This document shows positions 26,505 through 50,013 of a DNA stretch of 64,000 bases, in pieces. Position numbers and translations under genes: made by a program. The number at the start of each line of letters is the position of its first letter. Positions within the stretch are counted from its first letter, which is position 1. Source of the stretch: Promethearchaeota archaeon (GTDB lineage Archaea; Asgardarchaeota; Lokiarchaeia; Sigyniarchaeales; SOKP01); assembly GCA_019058245.1 (NCBI GenBank), contig JAHPZJ010000030.1:96001-160000 (forward strand), read 5' to 3'. The notes below the pieces were generated by a model. The model was not told where the DNA came from and ran no database searches. It worked only from the letters and a program-made list of their open reading frames with translations.

Positions 26505-26591
26505 ATGAATTATGAAATTGATAAAATTCAATTTCTGAGAACACCATACAAATTAAATCTGGCACGTCGCCGTCGTCTGCTAATTTATTAA
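26505..26591 (+). CDS. Putative arginine leader peptide (28 aa; 35 aa if started at TTG 26484)
   Basis: MNYEIDKIQFLRTPYKLNLARRRRLLIY*; Arg run CGT CGC CGT CGT at 26565-26576; stop 112 nt upstream of argJ; in-frame TTG at 26484 has GGTG 8 nt upstream. Confidence 0.8.
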   Translation: MNYEIDKIQFLRTPYKLNLARRRRLLIY

Positions 26592-37966: not shown

Positions 37967-39469
37967 CTAAAATCGAACTTTTATATCTCTCTTATGAAGA
38001 TAAGATTTTAAATCCTTGATTTTTATTGTCTTTGTATGGAACAAAGATGCTGCTAAGACCGCTTCTGCCCCAGCTTTAATAGCTTCATAAAAATGTTCAT
38101 AATTACCTGCTCCACCCGAAGCAATTAATGGTACTGATATCACATTGGTGAGATTTTGAATTAATTTAAAGTCATAACCTAATTGAGTCCCATCTCGATC
38201 CATACTAGTAACAAGTAGTTCCCCTGCACCCCTTTCAACAACTTCTTTTGCCCATTCTATTGCATCTAATCCTGTTGATTCTGTACCCGCCTTTATATAT
38301 ACTTCCCAAGTATCTGCTTTTTTCTTTACGTCAATTGCACACACAATAGACTGACTTCCAAACTTTTGAGCACCTTCAGTTATAACTTTGGGATTATCTA
38401 CGGCAGCAGTGTTAATACTTACTTTTTCTGCCCCTGTATTAATGATATTTGTTATATCATTCAAATTTCTAATACCGCCTCCTACTGTAAAAGGAATATA
38501 TACTTCTTCAGCAACCTTTCTCAAAGTTTGATACAATATTGATCGTTTTTCTAAGGTTGCAGAAATGTCTAGAAATACTAATTCATCCGCACCTTCTGAA
38601 TTATAGAATCTAGATAATTCTACAGGGTCTCCACTATCCTTCAAGTTGAGGTATTGTACACCCTTTACTACTCTTCCATCTTTAATATCAAGGCATGGCA
38701 CTATCCTTTTTGCTAAATTGGTTGGGTCATACTTTTTTGTTAAATCTCTTAAATTTTTATTACTTAATTTATTACTATAAAACGCTTTTCCAATAATAAC
38801 ACCATCTGCATAGTGTAGAACTTGATTAATATCATTTAAATTGCTTATTCCACCAGAAGCAATTACTTTGGTGTCTGGATGTTTAATATTTGAAATATTC
38901 TTGTATATCTCAAAATTAGGGCCTTCTAAAGTTCCATCACGTGATACATCGGTTATTATAAAGTTTGAAACACCTTGTTCTTCTAAATTCTTAAACTGAG
39001 ATTCTAAAGTAATATTTGTATCTTCAAGCCAACCCTTTATCCTCAAATTACCATTGAGAACATCTAGTGCAACTATTATATCATTATTATATTTTTTCAT
39101 TAAATTCCTAAAAAGAGTTTGATTTTCAATAGCAATAGTCCCAATAATAACCTTATAAAGCCCTAGACCTAATAATTCTCTAATAGTTCTTTCAGTCCTG
39201 ATTCCCCCTCCTAGTTGAATTTTTGAGCCCCATTTCTTACTTTCTTCTATCAAAGATCTTATAACTTCATAATTTGGTCCATTCTCAAATTCACCTGATT
39301 TTGCTCCATTTAAATTTATAACGTGTATCTGCTCGATCCCTTGATTAAAAAAATTCTTAAGTAATTCAACAGGTCTTTTAGAATAATTATTAATTTTATC
39401 AAAATCTCCTTTATATAACCTAACAACATTACCATTTAACAAATCAATAGCAGGAATTATTTTTTTCAT
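37967..39469 (-). CDS. hisA-hisF: Fused HisA (ProFAR isomerase) - HisF (imidazole glycerol phosphate synthase cyclase subunit)
   Basis: N-half [27 protein letters not shown]; C-half [34 protein letters not shown]. Confidence 0.94.
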
Positions 39470-39476
39470 ATTATAA

Positions 39477-40070
39477 TCACCTCTTTATCAAGGAAATGAA
39501 ATATTTAATAATTCTATCACCTGCATCTTGACTTTTTTCTGGATGAAATTGGGTAGCTATTACGTGATCTTTTAGGATTATAACTGGAATAGAGATCCCA
39601 TGATTTACATAAGAGATTATAGTATTTTTATCATTGGGATTACAATAATATGAATGGTTAAAATAAACATAACCATAAAAATATGGTTTTGAAGATGGGA
39701 TTAATCTATTCCATCCAGTATGAGGAATTCTAATAGATTGATTTGGGGTTAATCTAATTACCTTTCCAGGGATGATATCTAATCCACTAATATCTAAAGA
39801 TTCTTCAGAATTTGAAAATAATAGTTGCATGCCTAAGCAGATACCCATTGTTGGAACAGTAAGAATAGAATCTTTTAATGGGGAGAACAATCCATTTTGT
39901 TTAAGTTCTTTAACAGCATCACCAAAAGCGCCTACTCCAGGGAGAATCAAACCTTTAGATTTCTCTATTAAATCTAGATCTCTTGAAATAATGACATCCG
40001 GATAAAATCTTTGAACACTTTTTTGAATCGACCGAAGATTGCCACTACCATAATCTATTATAGTAATCAT
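39477..40070 (-). CDS. hisH: Imidazole glycerol phosphate synthase glutaminase subunit
   Basis: IIDYGSGNL, PGVGAF, GICLGMQ, PHTGWN, QFHPEKS; start moved to ATG 40070. Confidence 0.95.
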   Translation of the reverse strand: MITIIDYGSGNLRSIQKSVQRFYPDVIISRDLDLIEKSKGLILPGVGAFGDAVKELKQNGLFSPLKDSILTVPTMGICLGMQLLFSNSEESLDISGLDIIPGKVIRLTPNQSIRIPHTGWNRLIPSSKPYFYGYVYFNHSYYCNPNDKNTIISYVNHGISIPVIILKDHVIATQFHPEKSQDAGDRIIKYFISLIKR

Positions 40071-40083
40071 GTTAAATACCAAA

Positions 40084-40689
40084 TTACAATATTCCTTTAC
40101 TTGAAGGAAGTTTTCGATTCCCTTTTGAATCAATTCTAGTGCTATAATCCAATGCTTTACCTAGAGATTTAAATATTGCTTCTGCAATATGATGGTTATT
40201 TTTACCATAGAGAACTCTAACATGGAGTGTTATTTGGGCATTAATTGAAAATGTATATAAAAAATGCTCTATTAAATCGACTGGGATTAAATTATCCTCC
40301 TTCGATCCTATAAACGGATTTGTCCAATTGATTTGCTTTTTAAAAAATGGTCTTGAAGAGATATCGATGGCAACAAATGCGAGGCACTCATCCATAGGAA
40401 AAAAACAATGTCCAACTCGTGTAATTCCAATTTTATTTCCTAAGGCTTTATTAAAAACTTTACCTAATACAATGGAGGTATCTTCAATGAGGTGATGATT
40501 ATCAACATTAAGATCACCCTCCGCAAAAATATTCATATCAAATTTTCCGTGAATAGCAATTTGGGTAAGAAGATGATCAAAAATACCGATTGAAGTCTCA
40601 ATTTTACAATCACCAACTCCATCAATATTAATTTCAATATTAATGCTTGTTTCCTTGGTTTTTCTTTCTAATTTAGCTTTTCTTTCCAT
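40084..40689 (-). CDS. hisB: Imidazoleglycerol-phosphate dehydratase (monofunctional)
   Basis: RKTKET, FDHLL, HH.IED, PMDE, NNHHIAE; ATG 40689 after GAGGAG. Confidence 0.96.
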   Translation of the reverse strand: MERKAKLERKTKETSINIEINIDGVGDCKIETSIGIFDHLLTQIAIHGKFDMNIFAEGDLNVDNHHLIEDTSIVLGKVFNKALGNKIGITRVGHCFFPMDECLAFVAIDISSRPFFKKQINWTNPFIGSKEDNLIPVDLIEHFLYTFSINAQITLHVRVLYGKNNHHIAEAIFKSLGKALDYSTRIDSKGNRKLPSSKGIL

Positions 40690-40690
40690 T

Positions 40691-41824
40691 TTAATTCTCC
40701 TCAAAATATGATTTTAATATTTCTATTACCTTTTTCATTTGTAAACTTGTACCTATTGAGATTCTCAAGCAATTTGAGAGTTCTGCTGTATAATTTCTTA
40801 CTTTAATTTTATTATTCAATAAATATTGATAAACTGAATCTGAAATTTCAGATGATTCAAATCTTAATAAAATAAAATTTGTCTGACTTGGATGTATATA
40901 AAAAATCTTATTATTCTTTCTTAAATTAAGAAGGTCCTTAAAAAATTCTTCTCGAATAGATATGATTTTTTTAATATTTGCTGAAATTTCATCTTTTTTA
41001 TCTAATAATAATAAACCATATTGCAAAGCTACATTATTTACATTAAAAGGGCTTTTTATACGAATTAATATTTCATTAATGGAAGGATTTGATATTGTAT
41101 AACCTAATCTTAATCCTGCGAGAGAATAAGACTTGCTAAATGATCGAGAGATAATTAAATTATCATAAGATTTGATTAAATCTACTGCACTCAGACCATC
41201 ACTGAAATCAATATAAGCTTCATCAATAATTACTAATTTTTTCAACATTAAAAGTTGTTTAATAAAATCAAGAGAGATTAACATTCCATCTGGATTATTT
41301 GGTCTAGATAAGATAATAATATTTGATGATTTAGCCCTCTTCATAAAATTGAGTTGATCTAAATCATATTCTGCAATACCCGTTGTTTCATTTATTGATA
41401 ATCTTAGCGGAAATGATTCATACTTTGCACCATTTATATTCGCAAAAAATTTATACATTGAAAACGTTGGATCAATGCTTAAAATAGTGGTTTTAGGTGT
41501 GGCATAGATCTTAATGATAAGACCTATAATTTCATTAGAGCCTGTTCCTGCTAAGAGATATGAAATAGGTAATTCTAGATCCTTTGATAGCTTATCTAAA
41601 AATGTATTAGCATTCAAATCTGGATAATTTTTTAAAATATTTAATGATTTTAAATTTGCTAAATCTCCTAAAGGTGGTACAAAAGGACTTTCATTTTTAT
41701 CTAAAAATATCATCTCATTTTCCTGGCTCGATTTATCTAAATATGAAAGTGAATCAAAATTTTGAGAATCTAAGTACTTCCTAATAATTTTAGAAGGCTT
41801 AATAGTGTAATTTTTTTTATCCAA
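40691..41824 (-). CDS. hisC: Histidinol-phosphate aminotransferase
   Basis: LDKNESP, PNNP.G, DEAY, RSFSKSYSLAGLRLG, RISIG. Confidence 0.93.
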   Translation of the reverse strand: MDKKNYTIKPSKIIRKYLDSQNFDSLSYLDKSSQENEMIFLDKNESPFVPPLGDLANLKSLNILKNYPDLNANTFLDKLSKDLELPISYLLAGTGSNEIIGLIIKIYATPKTTILSIDPTFSMYKFFANINGAKYESFPLRLSINETTGIAEYDLDQLNFMKRAKSSNIIILSRPNNPDGMLISLDFIKQLLMLKKLVIIDEAYIDFSDGLSAVDLIKSYDNLIISRSFSKSYSLAGLRLGYTISNPSINEILIRIKSPFNVNNVALQYGLLLLDKKDEISANIKKIISIREEFFKDLLNLRKNNKIFYIHPSQTNFILLRFESSEISDSVYQYLLNNKIKVRNYTAELSNCLRISIGTSLQMKKVIEILKSYFEEN

Positions 41825-43156
41825 TTAACGCCCCTCCTTTACATTTTTATTTAAAGCTGTCCTTAAAGCTGCCGCATTTGCATGTCCTGTTAGGTCTTCA
41901 GATTTTGCTATTATTTCAGCATGTTCAGATAATCTAAAAGCTGTTTCTTCATTTAAATAGACATAACTAATCCTTTTAATAAAATCATAAACTGATAAAG
42001 CAGATGAAAAGCGAGCTGTGCCATTTGTCGGCATCACATGACTAGGTCCTGCTATATAGTCACCTAAAACTTCAAAGGAGTTTTCTCCTATAAAAATCCC
42101 TCCTGCATTTTCTATTTTATCTAAAACTGTCATAGGCTCTTTAATCATAAGAGATAAATGTTCAGGTGCAAATTCATTTGAAATTTGTATTGATTCTTCT
42201 ATTGAATTTGTTAAAACAATACCACCATTGCTTTGAATTGATTCTTTAATAATAGATTTTCCTTTCAGAGTTATAATTTGCCTTTCTAACTCTTTTTTCA
42301 CAGATGAAATTAAATTTTCAGATGAAGTAACTAAGATAGGAATAGCTAAAATATCGTGTTCTGCTTGTGCTAATAGATCTGAAGCAACTAATGAGGGATT
42401 TGCTGTTTCATCAGCAATTACCAATGCTTCAGTAGGTCCATATATCCCATCAATTCCCACTGTTCCATAAACTTCCTTCTTTGCTAAATTTACATAGATA
42501 TTTCCAGGTCCTACGATTTTATCCACTCTAGGAATTTGTTCCGTTCCAAATGCCATAGCTGCAATAGCTTGAGCTCCACCTATCCTAAAAATTCTTATAT
42601 TGATATCATACTTCTTGATTAACCCAAAAGTTGCGAGGATAATGTTTGGTAAAGTACCTTGCTTATTGGGAGGAGAAGTAAATATTATATTTTTAACTCC
42701 TGCTACTATGGCTGGTATAGTTGCCATTAAAATTGAAGAAAATAGAGGAGCTATTCCTCCTGGAATATATATTCCAACTGTTTCAATAGGTTTTATGATT
42801 TGACCTATTTGACCGCCAAGGTTATAATTCATCCAAGAGATGATAGGTTGAAATTTATGAAAATTATAAATTCTCTCACATGCAATTTCTAAAGCTTTTC
42901 TTAACTTAGGATTAATAGAACTCAGATATTTTTCAAAATCAACATCTAATAATTCAAATTGTTCAATATCTACTTTATCTAACTTTAATGTCCAATCTTT
43001 AAGTGCTGCGTCTTTTCTTTCCTTGACATCTTTTACAATGACTTTTACACTTTCCTCTGGAGTAATATCTTCACTTTTAGACATTTCATTTAAAGTAGTA
43101 AAATATCTATTTAATATAGTATTTCTAGCTTCATCAACTGTATAAGTTTTAATCAT
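41825..43156 (-). CDS. hisD: Histidinol dehydrogenase
   Basis: YIPGG, GGAQAIAA.A.GT, GPGN.YV, DLLAQAEH, APEHL, GDY.AGPSHVMPT. Confidence 0.96.
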   Translation of the reverse strand: MIKTYTVDEARNTILNRYFTTLNEMSKSEDITPEESVKVIVKDVKERKDAALKDWTLKLDKVDIEQFELLDVDFEKYLSSINPKLRKALEIACERIYNFHKFQPIISWMNYNLGGQIGQIIKPIETVGIYIPGGIAPLFSSILMATIPAIVAGVKNIIFTSPPNKQGTLPNIILATFGLIKKYDINIRIFRIGGAQAIAAMAFGTEQIPRVDKIVGPGNIYVNLAKKEVYGTVGIDGIYGPTEALVIADETANPSLVASDLLAQAEHDILAIPILVTSSENLISSVKKELERQIITLKGKSIIKESIQSNGGIVLTNSIEESIQISNEFAPEHLSLMIKEPMTVLDKIENAGGIFIGENSFEVLGDYIAGPSHVMPTNGTARFSSALSVYDFIKRISYVYLNEETAFRLSEHAEIIAKSEDLTGHANAAALRTALNKNVKEGR

Positions 43157-44168
43157 TATACATCCCCAAATTCTTTAATAATTTAATATATCTCAAAGGT
43201 TCTTCCTCAAAAATATAGAGTGTGGGAGCGACAACTACACCACTTCCTCCAATTGCTCTTAAACTTCTTATTGCTTTTTGTAATTTTTCCTTCTCAACTA
43301 TTACATGAATAGCATACATTTTTTCTCCACTTTTTGTAAAGACTGATGAGATTGTAGGTCCTTGAAGGCCTTCAAGTCCCTTTTTAGAAAAGACATTATT
43401 AGCAATTTCCTCTGGGCTTTCTCCTCTCATGTTTACAAAAACTGATACAAAATTTTGAGCTCTTAAAGTAGCTTCAATAAATTCAATCAATTGACGAGCA
43501 ACTTTTAAAACAGTCTCATTTTTTAAAGCAGTTTGATTTCCAATAAGTACCGACTCAGATGTCATTATTTTTCCACCATTAATTCTTTTTAAACGATTAT
43601 CCTTTAAAGTTTGTCCTGTTGATACAAGATCAACTATGATATCACTATAACCTAGCTCAGGATATACCTCAATAGAGCCATTACCTTTAATTAACTCATA
43701 CTCAATATCAAGGGAACTCAAAAACTGTTTAGTAAGTTTTGTAAATTTAGTAGCGACTCTAAGTGATTTCTTATTTATCTTTATCTCTTCAATTGATTCT
43801 TCTGTCCAATCTTCAGGAACTGCTATTTCAAGGCTGCATTTTCCAAAATTTAATGCATTGTGCATAATTACTAACTCATTTTCATTTAAAGGTGTATATT
43901 CAAGCACTAGATCATAACCAACTATACCCATTTCTAAAGACCCATTCAACACGCCTCTAACAATATCTACTTGTCGTTGATAAACCAATTGAAGATTAAT
44001 GAGTCCTTGGATTGATCCGATATATTGTCTATTGTTTCTTTGTATATTAAAGCCGCAACTTCTTAAAAATTCTTGAGTTTCGATTTCCATTCTTCCCTTC
44101 GAAGGAATTGCTAATCTTACTTGACGAGATTTATATTTTGGAAATATTTTTTGTAGATCTTCTTTCAT
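43149..44168 (-). CDS. hisG: ATP phosphoribosyltransferase, long form
   Basis: [34 protein letters not shown]; C-terminal regulatory domain. Confidence 0.96.
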
Positions 44169-45073
44169 CTATTTCTCCTCCTTAATTCGGTGATTATTTC
44201 TTCAGGTTTAATTTTTTTGGTAGCCATTAATACAAGAATAAAATAAGTTACGTCAGCTATTTCCCAAATTAAGTTGTCCCTATCGGTATAATTTATCACT
44301 TCGGTACACTCTTCCTCAATTTTAGACATTAATAATTCATTATTTTCTGCAAGTTTTTTACTATAAGATTCATTTACACTATAATTTTCAATTCTATCAA
44401 TTATTAAATCATAGAGAAATTTTATAGAAAATTTCTGATCCTGAAAACAAGAATAAGAACCTTTATGACAAGCAAAACCTTTTTGTTTTACTCTAAATAA
44501 TAAAGTATCTGCATCACAATCGTATAAAATTTTCTTTATAATTTGATAATTCCCTGATTCTTCGCCTTTTATCCATAGTCGGTTTCTTGATCTGCTGAAG
44601 TAAGTTGATCTTCTAGTTTTGATTGTTTGTTTCAAAGACTCTTTTGATGAATATGCGAGCATTAGAACATTATCATCGAGATCTTGAACTATTGTTGGAA
44701 TCAATCCATTTCCTTTATCAAAATCTAAAATATTAAACAAAATATTATCTATCAATGAATAATCTTTAATTGAGTTAAAACTTAAAATTTCATCATTTTT
44801 ATGAGATTGTGGATTATATTTTATCATTCCCTTTTCTGTTATTAAATCATTCAATTCTTTTTGATTAATTTCTGAATCATTCCATATTTTAACCTTTTTA
44901 GAAACTCTCTTAAGCATATCACTCTTTATCAGTGCAATAAGACTTTCCTTACTAGCTTCAAGAACAAGAATCATAAACAGATCCCAATTTCGTTTTATAT
45001 ATACTCCATCTATAAACTCTTTTAAGCTTCCAAGCGTTTTCATATCCTTCATATTAATTTTTAATATTATCAT
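44165..45073 (-). CDS. hisIE: Bifunctional PR-AMP cyclohydrolase / PR-ATP pyrophosphatase with about 110-aa N-terminal extension
   Basis: [32 protein letters not shown]; KIEEE..E, WEIAD. Confidence 0.93.
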
Positions 45074-45079
45074 AATTAT

Positions 45080-45167
45080 TCCCCCAAACTAAAATTGAAT
45101 TTAGTTTGATTTAAATCCGATGAATAAAAGATACCTTATACTATATTAATTCATCGGAATTATTCAT
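45080..45167 (-). promoter_or_regulatory. Putative his attenuator RNA structures
   Basis: 10-bp inverted repeat TCCGATGAAT (45116-45125 / 45149-45158); competing 8-bp pairing 45120-45127 / 45160-45167; 9-bp hairpin 45085-45093 / 45100-45108 touching the GGGGGA SD (45080-45085) of hisIE. Confidence 0.65.
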
Positions 45168-45324
45168 GATGTAGCCAATGATGCAAGTATGAATTACGGG
45201 TTTTAAAACAATCACCTCTCACATCATTCGATTTAATAACAAGATTGTTATTAAAGTTATTTATAATAAAGAAACTCAATTTAGAAAGACATTGGTTAAG
45301 AACATTTTTTCTATTAAAATCCAT
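45160..45324 (-). CDS. Putative histidine leader peptide (54 aa; 20 aa if started at GTG 45222)
   Basis: MDFNRKNVLNQCLSKLSFFIINNFNNNLVIKSNDVRGDCFKTRNSYLHHWLHHE*; all four His codons at 45166-45183; stop 86 nt upstream of hisIE; AAGTGA before the ATG. Confidence 0.75.
   Translation of the reverse strand: MDFNRKNVLNQCLSKLSFFIINNFNNNLVIKSNDVRGDCFKTRNSYLHHWLHHE
45232..45255. repeat. 24-bp near-perfect palindrome in the his upstream region
   Basis: TTTAATAACAA-GA-TTGTTATTAAA. Confidence 0.7.
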
Positions 45325-45571
45325 ACCAAATTCACTTTTATTGAGTTCTTTTTATCAAAGCCAGAGTTATTCGGCTTATATCAATTTATTATATAATTTA
45401 TGGAAAAGAACCTAAAAAAGTTTTCTATTATTTAGTTCTAAAAAAATCAAGGTTTTGTTTGATCTTGTTAAATTTTTTCAATTCTCAAGCAGAAATATAA
45501 ATTTTAACATATAAAAGGATCTAATAAAATAAAATCTTATTTCAATAAGGGAAATTATAAGAACTGTAAAC

Positions 45572-46204: not shown

Positions 46205-47878
46205 ATGAGTGATGATTTAAAAGCAATTAAAGAAATCTCAAAACTTACAGGAAAGGAATTAAAAAAAATTCACGACGATTTTTATGAACGTAATTTAGAT
46301 AATGCTGAATTTGTTTATTATCTTCAAGAAGATAATGTAATATATATAGGTATTAATTTCTATTATTTAGATTTGTCTGAGAAAGATCTACAAAAAGTAT
46401 ATGACTCTGTGAGCAATCTTAAATCTCTAAAGGGTTTAAGTCTTAAATATAAAGTGATTGATAAAGTTCCAGATTTTATTAGAAATTTCAAAGATTTAGA
46501 ATCATTAAACCTTTCGGACAACCATTTAAAATCATTACCTGAATGGATGGGAGAGCTTAAAAATTTGAACATTCTTAATCTAGAATCTAATGAATTAGCA
46601 TCTATACCTGATTGGATGAAGGAACTTAACAACTTATCTCATCTTAATGTGCAAAATAATAATTTGAATTTTTTACCAGAATGGTTAGGAAATTTAGAGA
46701 ATCTAAAAACCTTGAAAGTGGTATTTAATAATCTTGAATGGAATGATATGAGTCTCAATGTATTAAAAAGTGTTTTTAAAAGAGGAGGTACCATATTCGC
46801 ACCAAATATACTTCAGTTTCAAGCAATACATGATCTCCCTAAAGAAAAGATTGAGATCATACGTGAAATTGAAAAAGATACCATTGAAGATGAAAAAAAG
46901 GGTAGGATATCTAGGTTACCAATAAAAGTAGAAGATGGCAAAGTTACGGAGTGGAAATTTGTTGGGTATGGCATTAAATCCTTACCAGAGAATTTTGGAA
47001 TTTTTAATAATCTAAAATCATTGATAATTTCGCGTAATCAAATCGAAGCGTTGCCAGAGTCTTTTGGAGAATTAAAAGATTTAGAGTTTCTCGATTTATC
47101 TAGTAATAAATTAACTACTTTGCCAGAATCTTTTGTTAATTTAACGTCGATTAATAATCTTAATCTTAATAATAACCAATTTATTGAGATCCCTACACAA
47201 TTATGGGCACTTAAAGAACTTACTGATTTAGATTTATCCAACAATCCTCTTAATCCTGAAGAAATGGTTGTTTCACAAAAAGTTCCAGATTTAATTAGAG
47301 AATACCTTAGAGTGAAAGCTACAATAATAGTTTTTATATCTCACGCAGTTCTCGATTTTGAGCCTTATCGCATAGAAGAGCTTGTAAAATACTTGGAAAA
47401 ACAAAAAGAAATATCTCAAGTATTTTTTTGTGAGTCAGATCTTGCTGGTAATATTGATGAGTGGATGCTAAATGCTGTGCAAAAGAGTCAACTAATTTTA
47501 TTTATTGGAACTAATAAATCAGTTTTTAATTCCGTAGATTGTACCAATGAACTGCAACTCGCTGATAAATTCTCTATTCCAGTCATTCCCCTAAAAGGTA
47601 AAGATATAAACTGGCCAGATTTAGCGGATATAAACCTTTCTCGGGAATTAGGATTAGAATATGATATTGATAACTTCGACCAATTTTGCTCTGATGTATA
47701 CAAGTACATAGAAAATTTCAAGCGGGAAATAAACCTAATGGAAAAAGAGGAACGTCGATTAGGTATTATAGATATTTATGAACGATTTCGGTTAATTTTA
47801 GATGATAGTCTAAGTGATATCAAAAGAAAATTGGATGAATTAGAAAAGAGAATTGCTCAACTTGAAACCAAGAATTAA
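46205..47878 (+). CDS. Leucine-rich repeat protein with C-terminal TIR domain and coiled coil
   Basis: Two blocks of 23-aa LRRs (LxLxxNxLxxLPExxGxLxxL); VFISHA..., S..C.NELQLA, IPVIPL (TIR); terminal heptads. Confidence 0.88.
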   Translation: MSDDLKAIKEISKLTGKELKKIHDDFYERNLDNAEFVYYLQEDNVIYIGINFYYLDLSEKDLQKVYDSVSNLKSLKGLSLKYKVIDKVPDFIRNFKDLESLNLSDNHLKSLPEWMGELKNLNILNLESNELASIPDWMKELNNLSHLNVQNNNLNFLPEWLGNLENLKTLKVVFNNLEWNDMSLNVLKSVFKRGGTIFAPNILQFQAIHDLPKEKIEIIREIEKDTIEDEKKGRISRLPIKVEDGKVTEWKFVGYGIKSLPENFGIFNNLKSLIISRNQIEALPESFGELKDLEFLDLSSNKLTTLPESFVNLTSINNLNLNNNQFIEIPTQLWALKELTDLDLSNNPLNPEEMVVSQKVPDLIREYLRVKATIIVFISHAVLDFEPYRIEELVKYLEKQKEISQVFFCESDLAGNIDEWMLNAVQKSQLILFIGTNKSVFNSVDCTNELQLADKFSIPVIPLKGKDINWPDLADINLSRELGLEYDIDNFDQFCSDVYKYIENFKREINLMEKEERRLGIIDIYERFRLILDDSLSDIKRKLDELEKRIAQLETKN

Positions 47879-47925: not shown

Positions 47926-50013
47926 TCAACTGACAAATTGCATGTCTATTGATAACCTACTTATCCTTTTTCTAATTTCTGTCTTATCCTCTATAATTTT
48001 CTTAATATAACTAGAGATTTCCTTTCTTTTACCCTTATCAGTAGGAATTGGTAAAACTATATCCATGACACGATTTCCTATAGTAGCGATTGTACCTTGT
48101 ACAAATGTAATTGCTTGAATTTGTTTTTGAACTACGTCTAAATTCAATAAATATAGAAGTAAATAAGAATCAATATTTTCTTCATTTTCTATTGCTTTTA
48201 TCTGGAAAATATGACTTTGGATTATTATCTGTGTATCTAACTCAGTAACGTAGGCAGTTTTTCCTATTAAATTAGGACCACCGTCCTTAACCAAAAGTAT
48301 ATCTCCAACTTCAATATTTTGTTTCTCTTTATATTGGTTGTACACTTCTATACTAGTCTTCTTATATGAATCTAGATTTATTTCCCAATTATTTAATTCA
48401 CTTGTCCGAATAAAAGGGATATCACCTAAACCATATACATTTGAACCTATTTCATCTCCTCGCGGGAGATATCTCCCTCTATTTGAATAAATGATATTTT
48501 TATCAATTAGATCTTTTATAGTTAGAAGAATAAAGTTCTGATCATCTGAAAGCTTTTTTAAAGTTTTCTCAACTCCAATATAGTAGAGGGGGATGAAAAC
48601 CTTATTCTTTATTTGACTAAATTTTATTTTAAAGATTTTTTGGTCTTTTAAATGATTAAATTCTTCAGATTCTTTTATTTTTATATATAATTTTGAAAGA
48701 TCGTCATTAACTATTGGATTTCCAATAGAATCTAATTTATAGCTTCCATCTTTATTCAATTTGTATAGAACTTTTCCATCTTTATCGTGTCCAACGTTTT
48801 CTACAATTGCAAAATCAATTATGTAATCTTCTGGAATTTGATTTAATTTTTGAAAAAATAGAATACTTGTTTTGTTACATGTGTAAGGTTGGAATGTATT
48901 TTGATCTAAGGAAATTATCCCTAGAATTTTGCCATGAGAAGTTAAAAATTCCCATATATAGCGATCTGTTATGTTTCCAAATATCCCTTCTGGTAAAACA
49001 ATCCCCAGTTTACCACCATTCTTGAGTAATTGAACACATCTTTCAATAAATAAAATTTGGGGAGGTTGTTGCTTTACTAGGTTTTTTTGCATTTCCCATT
49101 TATCATTGATGTTTTTCCAAACATGTGCTAATTGATAATTCTTTAAAATATTTTTATCAGTTATAGGGATTTTAACTCCAAACGGAGGATTAGTAAAGAT
49201 ATAATCAAAACCATCATTCTTTATCAATTCCTTTGCTGGAGATCTATAACTTTTTGGATCTAATGAGTCTTCGCAAAATATTTTTGCTTTTCCATTACTT
49301 AGTATTTCTAAATATAATTTACTTATTTTAGCTAAAAAAAGATCCTTATCAATGCCATATAAATTCGAAATATAGTCAATTCTTTTTTCCTTCGATTTTA
49401 TATTTGACCAGATAAGATCTTTAGTTTCAAGAAGAAAACCACCATGACCACAGGCAGGATCTAAAACTTTTGATTCATAAGGAGGATTTAAATAATTAAC
49501 CATGAAATTTACGACATTGGGAGGTGTAAAAAACTGTCCTCCCTCATCTTTTAAGATTTTGCTAACAAAAATTTCGAACGCATCACTTAAAATATCTTTA
49601 GATGATCGAAGAAGTGAAATCTCCTGTAATTCTTTAACAACCATATAAACAAGTTCTTTTGTTAACGTTATTTGCTCATTTTGATTCATAACATCGTTAA
49701 ATTTTTCTCTTACATTCTCATTGAAAAAAATTTCAATTCTTTTAAGTAAGTCTTGATTAGATTCTCCAACTTTTAAGCAAAATTCTACTTCCTCTTCATC
49801 TTCTTTAGACATTTCATCAACTAATTTACAAAGTAAGAGATTTACTATTTGCTTGGATCTAGCTCTAGTATCTGTATCGGTATATTTTAATTTTCCATAT
49901 AGATGCTGATTAATTGATGTAAATACCTGTTTTAAATTAGTTGTTTTCTTTAAATCTTTTTTCCTTATAATACTAGATTTTTTCTCTAAAAAATTAGTAA
50001 TATTAATTGGCAT
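47926..50013 (-). CDS. N6-adenine DNA methyltransferase (HsdM-like) fused to an HsdS-like target recognition domain
   Basis: GQFFTP, VLDPACGHGGFL, NPPF, LFIER, IVLPEG; C-terminal IPFIRTS, GDILL..DG, YLL..LN. Confidence 0.9.
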   Translation of the reverse strand: MPINITNFLEKKSSIIRKKDLKKTTNLKQVFTSINQHLYGKLKYTDTDTRARSKQIVNLLLCKLVDEMSKEDEEEVEFCLKVGESNQDLLKRIEIFFNENVREKFNDVMNQNEQITLTKELVYMVVKELQEISLLRSSKDILSDAFEIFVSKILKDEGGQFFTPPNVVNFMVNYLNPPYESKVLDPACGHGGFLLETKDLIWSNIKSKEKRIDYISNLYGIDKDLFLAKISKLYLEILSNGKAKIFCEDSLDPKSYRSPAKELIKNDGFDYIFTNPPFGVKIPITDKNILKNYQLAHVWKNINDKWEMQKNLVKQQPPQILFIERCVQLLKNGGKLGIVLPEGIFGNITDRYIWEFLTSHGKILGIISLDQNTFQPYTCNKTSILFFQKLNQIPEDYIIDFAIVENVGHDKDGKVLYKLNKDGSYKLDSIGNPIVNDDLSKLYIKIKESEEFNHLKDQKIFKIKFSQIKNKVFIPLYYIGVEKTLKKLSDDQNFILLTIKDLIDKNIIYSNRGRYLPRGDEIGSNVYGLGDIPFIRTSELNNWEINLDSYKKTSIEVYNQYKEKQNIEVGDILLVKDGGPNLIGKTAYVTELDTQIIIQSHIFQIKAIENEENIDSYLLLYLLNLDVVQKQIQAITFVQGTIATIGNRVMDIVLPIPTDKGKRKEISSYIKKIIEDKTEIRKRISRLSIDMQFVS

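Follow-up and report, generated by a model that had tools for sequence, protein, structure and literature searches.

The window, i.e. the whole stretch of 64,000 nt that was analysed, belongs to a genome of 3.09 Mb with 29% G+C, which is 76% complete. The named proteins closest to its HisG carry the submitter labels Promethearchaeota, Lokiarchaeota, Odinarchaeota or Hermodarchaeota, which places the genome among the Asgard archaea, most likely in the Promethearchaeota. A histidine biosynthesis operon is encoded on the minus strand, and the hairpin region under study is located on the same strand between a 54-codon ORF and hisIE, the first gene of the operon (Table 1). HisA and HisF are fused in one ORF of 500 residues (37967-39469, minus strand). 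HisIE has about 110 additional N-terminal residues without a Pfam match (44740-45073, minus strand), and about 190 in three relatives. In the genomes G055 and G063, a HisA-like domain is seemingly found at the place of this N-terminal extension, and the extension may be a decayed barrel. Further genes of the window, both judged by eye, encode a leucine-rich-repeat protein with a TIR-like tail (46205-47878, plus strand) and, following it, a DNA methyltransferase-like protein (47926-50013, plus strand).

Table 1. Features of the his operon and its leader region, in window coordinates.
Feature	Position	Strand	Remark
his operon hisIE-hisG-hisD-hisC-hisB-hisH-hisA/F (seven genes)	37967..45073	-	putative regulated unit
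Leader ORF, 54 codons	45160..45324	-	His at four of the last seven sense codons
His-codon cluster, putative sensor	45166..45183	-	4-8 His codons near the ORF end in 16/16 genomes
Hairpin P1	45268..45351	-	predicted; arms 45340-45351 and 45268-45280; encloses the leader SD-like site 45332-45335 and the start codon
Hairpin P2, within the leader ORF	45232..45255	-	10 bp, -6.8 kcal/mol; most core relatives have a similar predicted helix
Weak early alternative helix 1:2	45151..45181	-	codons for His-Trp (45175-45181) paired to 45151-45157 in the 5' arm of A
Hairpin A	45112..45162	-	arms 45149-45162 and 45112-45125; leader stop codon is the stem base
Alternative helix, 45160-45167 with 45120-45127	45120..45167	-	present here, judged a by-product
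Hairpin B	45084..45109	-	abuts the hisIE SD; folded in nearly all computed states
Shine-Dalgarno-like (SD) G run of hisIE	45080..45085	-	6 nt upstream of the start codon

When 135 genomes of the family were searched with an N-terminal HisIE query, 16 true orthologues were obtained. In all 16 orthologous operons, which are from Promethearchaeota (Asgard archaea), a His-rich ORF ends 75-92 nt upstream of the hisIE start, and the distance from the leader stop to this start is 81-87 nt in 14 of them. The leaders are 36-54 codons long, and indels preserve the frame in the 15 leaders with an assigned start. Taken alone, the four His codons of the leader in the window have a p-value of 5e-5 among 4570 candidates, which is not significant genome-wide. 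His leaders are also present in three more distant his operons, whose gene order differs, and are missing from nine his operons of a sister type. The latter (L090-L095, L097, L100 and L101) represent a natural control, being either unregulated or differently regulated; upstream of most of them lies a divergent gene cluster reminiscent of lysine fermentation genes. The distant His leaders are positioned before hisC (L103:4891, L104:5036 and L099:7319) and have a common short motif 12-24 nt past the stop codon; the leader at L104 appears frameshifted relative to the one at L103. In an unrooted HisIE tree, operon and leader types cut across two genera, with three mixed clades. These mixed clades suggest that the operon was exchanged together with its leader.

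Leaders for other amino acids were found as well. In an unbiased scan of the genome for upstream ORFs, a Leu-rich leader before leuA ranked first. It lies 87 nt before the gene (L049, contig C10, before position 41104), has relatives at L051-L080 and is present at 29 of 30 loci. For these approximately 29 leu leaders, one long hairpin starting from the stop codon is predicted, followed by a mostly open A-rich stretch and an SD. Two Trp-rich leaders (L050, contig C6, minus strand) precede trpD and an acetyltransferase/methyltransferase-like gene (120764 and 111956), both with pyrimidine-rich stretches downstream. Within the window, an Arg-rich leader ORF (26506-26591, plus strand) ends 112 nt before argJ, and its spacer with long U runs is kept in nine genomes.

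Folding was predicted at equilibrium and 37°C, and the footprint of a ribosome was assumed to end 13 nt past the first A-site base. The 88 nt from 45080 to 45167 fold into two hairpins, A and B (z = -3.7). Hairpin A has 14 bp with one mismatch; it is longer than described in the first-pass annotation, which was made from the sequence of the window, and takes in the leader stop codon. In the alignment, 94.6% of its cells are paired, 6 of the 14 pairs are compensated and its predicted probability is 0.965. The 9-bp hairpin described earlier at 45085-45108, ending on the first G of the SD, was confirmed as hairpin B and comprises 10 bp when the pair U-G 45109:45084 is counted. Hairpin B has 9-10 bp in 13 genomes, with a G-C/A-U swap in its centre and a predicted probability of 0.989; it is degenerate in two divergent genomes and absent in a third. 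Post-stop folds reaching the stability of A occur for only 0.36% of the genes in this genome, and SD-adjacent folds reaching that of B for 0.6% of the SD-led genes. On 15 aligned sequences, 91.5% of the cells of A and B are paired and nine pairs are compensated, a count which relatedness can inflate; the changes are spread over several branches of the HisIE tree. Such compensation was reached by none of 500 shuffles, and slid controls drop to 27-53% paired cells. Judged by this covariation, A and B are real and conserved RNA structures. Once both are folded, the 86-nt spacer is predicted to be almost fully paired. [quoted passage not shown]

The 5' arm of A contains a mini-frame of start codon, Asn and stop codon (45146-45154, minus strand), 5 nt past the leader stop. 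This mini-frame recurs in 10 of 16 genomes with an exchange between UAA and UAG, and the distant leaders likewise have an AUG just past the stop codon. Re-initiation at this mini-frame would be one alternative output of the leader, and control of mRNA decay another. The recurrence of the frame speaks for re-initiation, but its AUG is explained by the pairing of A, lacks an SD and is missing from four genomes. The leader might also have no part in histidine regulation, as the codon statistics and the nine leaderless operons could indicate; however, without sensing, it is difficult to account for leaders with cognate codons in front of four different biosynthetic operons. Taken together, these alternatives are distinctly unlikely, and sensing of histidine by the leader is considered highly probable.

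In the first-pass annotation, hairpin A was part of a switch, in which the His-Glu-stop bases of the leader and the next segment compete for a single 3' arm. Both complementarities are indeed present in the sequence (45160-45167 with 45120-45127, and 45149-45158 with 45116-45125), and all eight pairs of the alternative helix are intact in 2 of 15 genomes. The proposed switching was not borne out: the alternative helix has -3.3 kcal/mol versus -11.9 kcal/mol for the core of A, is 8.6 kcal/mol weaker than A and has a probability of 0.0000. Covariation across homologs, suggested at that time as a check, is found for A and B but not for the alternative helix, for which 266 of 500 shuffles were as good. 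The only G-C pair of this helix is its central one; it depends on Glu as the last codon of the leader and is disrupted in 11 of 15 genomes, and the helix was rejected as a switch. No ribosome position clearly favours it, and a ribosome at the stop codon would cover both competing 5' arms. From the sequence comparison, the alternative helix is best described as a by-product of a repeated hexamer, and a two-arm switch is hardly credible.

Around the leader ORF itself, all 15 leaders tested have a predicted helix of variable loop length at the position of P1; in three of these leaders, the sequence is unrelated. Opening of the leader start costs 9.1 kcal/mol with P1 complete versus 2.6 kcal/mol before its 3' arm is made; over 15 genomes, the median opening cost of the leader start is at the 93rd percentile of SD genes. 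Covariation is uninformative for P1, because its core pairs are nearly invariant. A DNA operator was considered for P1 and rejected; with a 12-nt variation in the spacing of the arms and an extending inner helix, P1 is likelier to act as RNA. Occlusion of the leader start after transcription fits a single round of leader translation. The predicted P1 fold suggests that ribosome loading is co-transcriptional, with replacement being rare, and that the decision is made once per transcript. Just upstream of P1, a small inverted repeat was noticed (45358-45377), which is possibly a binding site in the promoter region; relatives have palindromes of other sequence there. The weak 1:2 helix at the other end of the ORF has an energy of -5.3 kcal/mol here and about -10 kcal/mol in three relatives, and its covariation was equalled by 49 of 500 shuffles.

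If the leader acted by translational attenuation, the position of the ribosome would decide on the pairing of the hisIE start site, either through RNA freed by the melting of A or through the His codons (CAU complements AUG), which would close a junction around A and B. The strong and conserved SD at the foot of B fits this reading, as SDs are rare in this lineage (PMC12993045), and so does the narrow range of stop-to-start distances. Genome-wide, about a quarter of the genes are SD-led with a peak of the SD at -11/-12. The variants of the hisIE SD in relatives stay complementary to the anti-SD usual in archaea, which served as the reference, and the SD is genuine as far as can be judged. Furthermore, opening of the start site is costlier with a ribosome at the stop than with one stalled at the second His codon in all 13 core genomes (mean +2.5 kcal/mol), and costlier in free RNA than with the His codons covered in 14 of 16 genomes (mean +1.6 kcal/mol). 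However, both effects were equalled by shuffles (mean z 0.04 for stop versus stall and -0.63 for free RNA). Cognate pairs of leader and ribosome-binding site paired no better than non-cognate ones in a matrix (p = 0.81), and translational attenuation would need repeated translation of the leader, which P1 would prevent. With A and B folded, the hisIE start is about as accessible as usual (10th-70th percentile of SD genes). Since free and stalled RNA share this fold, a strong default-off translational state does not exist in the computed structures.

Particular devices for closing the start site were rejected likewise. Hairpin B does not qualify as a switched SD sequester: it is folded in nearly all states, overlaps the SD by 0-2 G only, and this overlap is not conserved. 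An anti-SD in the loop or the 3' arm of A is convincing by eye in single genomes but was matched by shuffles. Pairing of the His codons with the hisIE AUG as the default off state is possible but not above shuffles. Within the folding model, a dedicated SD switch is unsupported, whereas a non-specific and transient occlusion of the start site, followed by polarity, could still operate. Translational attenuation as a whole is regarded as unlikely.

With respect to intrinsic termination, U runs of six or more are found after 41-43% of the stop codons in this genome versus 18% upstream of divergent starts. In the his spacers, U runs are depleted, as U5 occurs in 6% of them (1/16) versus 62% of ordinary post-stop regions. 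No long U tract follows the hairpins in the window, as noted before, and the longest run is U4. Also the contrast to the arg leader holds, because U runs are scarce in the his spacers (U5+ in 1/16) and long in the arg spacers (U6+ in 9/9). Hairpin B was rejected as an intrinsic terminator, its next bases being G's. Still, intrinsic-like archaeal termination might occur without any factor at short U runs, either in the loop of A or at U3-U4 in the 3' arm of B, and be modulated by A. Oligo-T can suffice for termination by archaeal polymerase when no hairpin is present (review PMC13675443), 16 of 16 his spacers have a U3-U4 run at +66 to +77, and long U tracts exist in the arg leaders and in the his leader of G055. 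However, the U runs of the his spacers are shorter than those after ordinary genes here, and the conserved run is paired within B and then followed by G's, leaving this route quite improbable.

In G055, the his leader contains a 9-bp terminator-like hairpin with U8 after it, along with a 1:2 helix and a candidate 2:3 helix; at equilibrium, this hairpin forms in both states. The long U runs of the arg spacers and the hairpin with U8 in G055 point to an output at the level of transcription in the leader family, and the family as a whole looks transcriptional. The first-pass annotation had proposed translational or polarity-based control rather than an intrinsic terminator. This stands in so far as there is no terminator made of hairpin and U tract and an output by a factor or by polarity is likeliest; translational control by SD occlusion was not supported.

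As SD occlusion and a U-tract terminator are both unsupported, aCPSF1/FttA is the remaining route. FttA/aCPSF1 is the archaeal orthologue of eukaryotic CPSF73. The preferred reading, whose output follows from elimination and analogy, is a one-time co-transcriptional histidine attenuator with factor-dependent termination as its off state, and we give it about an even chance of being correct. A pioneer ribosome would load on the leader ORF before P1 is complete, and P1 would then shut the start site, with the fold being predicted and the timing assumed. At low His-tRNA, the ribosome would stall at the His codons, which lie 1-7 codons upstream of the stop. In this stalled state, A and B would fold, the polymerase would reach an open hisIE SD and a new ribosome would load, as far as the geometry indicates. 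At ample His-tRNA, the ribosome would reach the stop codon, keep A open and be released. The ribosome-free transcript would then be cleaved and terminated by aCPSF1/FttA, either within the spacer or, through polarity, shortly after the start of hisIE. For the protection by A and B, two speculative options are considered: the hairpins may deny unpaired RNA to FttA, or they may shorten the RNA such that the stalled ribosome stays on the polymerase and FttA is excluded. A stalled ribosome also leaves the polymerase uncoupled, and protection by structure is an assumption of the model.

The factor aCPSF1 is encoded in this genome (879 bits). A lokiarchaeal aCPSF1 terminates transcription in M. maripaludis, where 79% of the units without a U4 tract are still aCPSF1-dependent, and aCPSF1 binding is best with two U4 tracts (PMC8716108). 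FttA engages RNA at -20 to -36 nt from the 3' end, and its exclusion by a coupled ribosome has been put forward as a hypothesis (PMC11616081). Compared to the two U4 tracts preferred by aCPSF1, 11 of 16 his spacers have one or none. In a search for an exposed factor site, unpaired U amounted to 7.0 with A folded and rose to only 9.3 upon melting of A, and the best unpaired window of 17 nt stayed the same (0.70 versus 0.71). Neither in the U runs nor in the computed unpaired windows of the spacer was a positive sign of a factor-loading site found. An amino-acid attenuator executed by aCPSF1/FttA, in which the spacer hairpins let a ribosome stalled by His starvation shield the polymerase and a finished leader exposes it, is a tentative proposal which carries some weight but is doubtful on balance.

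New here is the testing of the spacer, in which A and B appear real, the two-arm switch and SD occlusion are unsupported and P1 is indicative of a decision taken once. Bacteria are known to use leader-peptide attenuation. A two-codon Met-Trp control has reportedly been described for trpY in Methanothermobacter. No paper on leader-peptide attenuation in Asgard archaea was found in the literature searched, which was poor in subscription journals, and a metagenome scan gave no loci. [quoted passage not shown] Having no U-tract terminator, the his variant offers a natural substrate for testing the exclusion of FttA by the ribosome (PMC11616081).

The system resembles bacterial leader-peptide attenuators but departs from the hisL type and from the translational types on the features tested. 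Like the enterobacterial his attenuator (hisL; Rfam His_leader), it has a leader ORF with His codons ahead of the his operon, a helix which would be melted by the ribosome at the stop codon and a weak 1:2 helix. Unlike hisL, the leader is 36-54 codons long and works with archaeal machinery, and there is no mutually exclusive pair of terminator and antiterminator, as A and B coexist. In addition, a U tract is missing and the untranslated RNA folds like the stalled state. A search of the his leader region against Rfam, including the His_leader model, gave no match.

With translational attenuators, such as the mycobacterial polycysteine sORFs (bioRxiv 10.1101/834739) and ermCL, it shares the sensor codons at the end of the upstream ORF (uORF) and an SD-led gene adjoining the structure, and polarity on later genes is possible. 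In contrast, their sensor tract or helix pairs with the SD by default, which was tested and not found here: both occlusion of the SD or start in ribosome-free RNA and a covarying anti-SD segment were absent in the tests.

The Rho-dependent attenuators controlled by a uORF (Salmonella mgtL/mgtA and corL/corA; E. coli tnaC) also have no intrinsic terminator, and in them, too, the position of the ribosome at the uORF end alters the downstream fold, here in computation and with the stop codon lying within the covarying hairpin A. Archaea are not known to have Rho; unlike in those systems, the factor here would be the nuclease aCPSF1/FttA and the signal His-tRNA. In the bacterial examples, full translation of the uORF refolds the leader towards termination and stalling leads to a resistant fold (PMC12360218). 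By analogy, aCPSF1/FttA is a functional analogue of Rho, and the his leader would work like the mgtL/corL/tnaC type without being a member of it.
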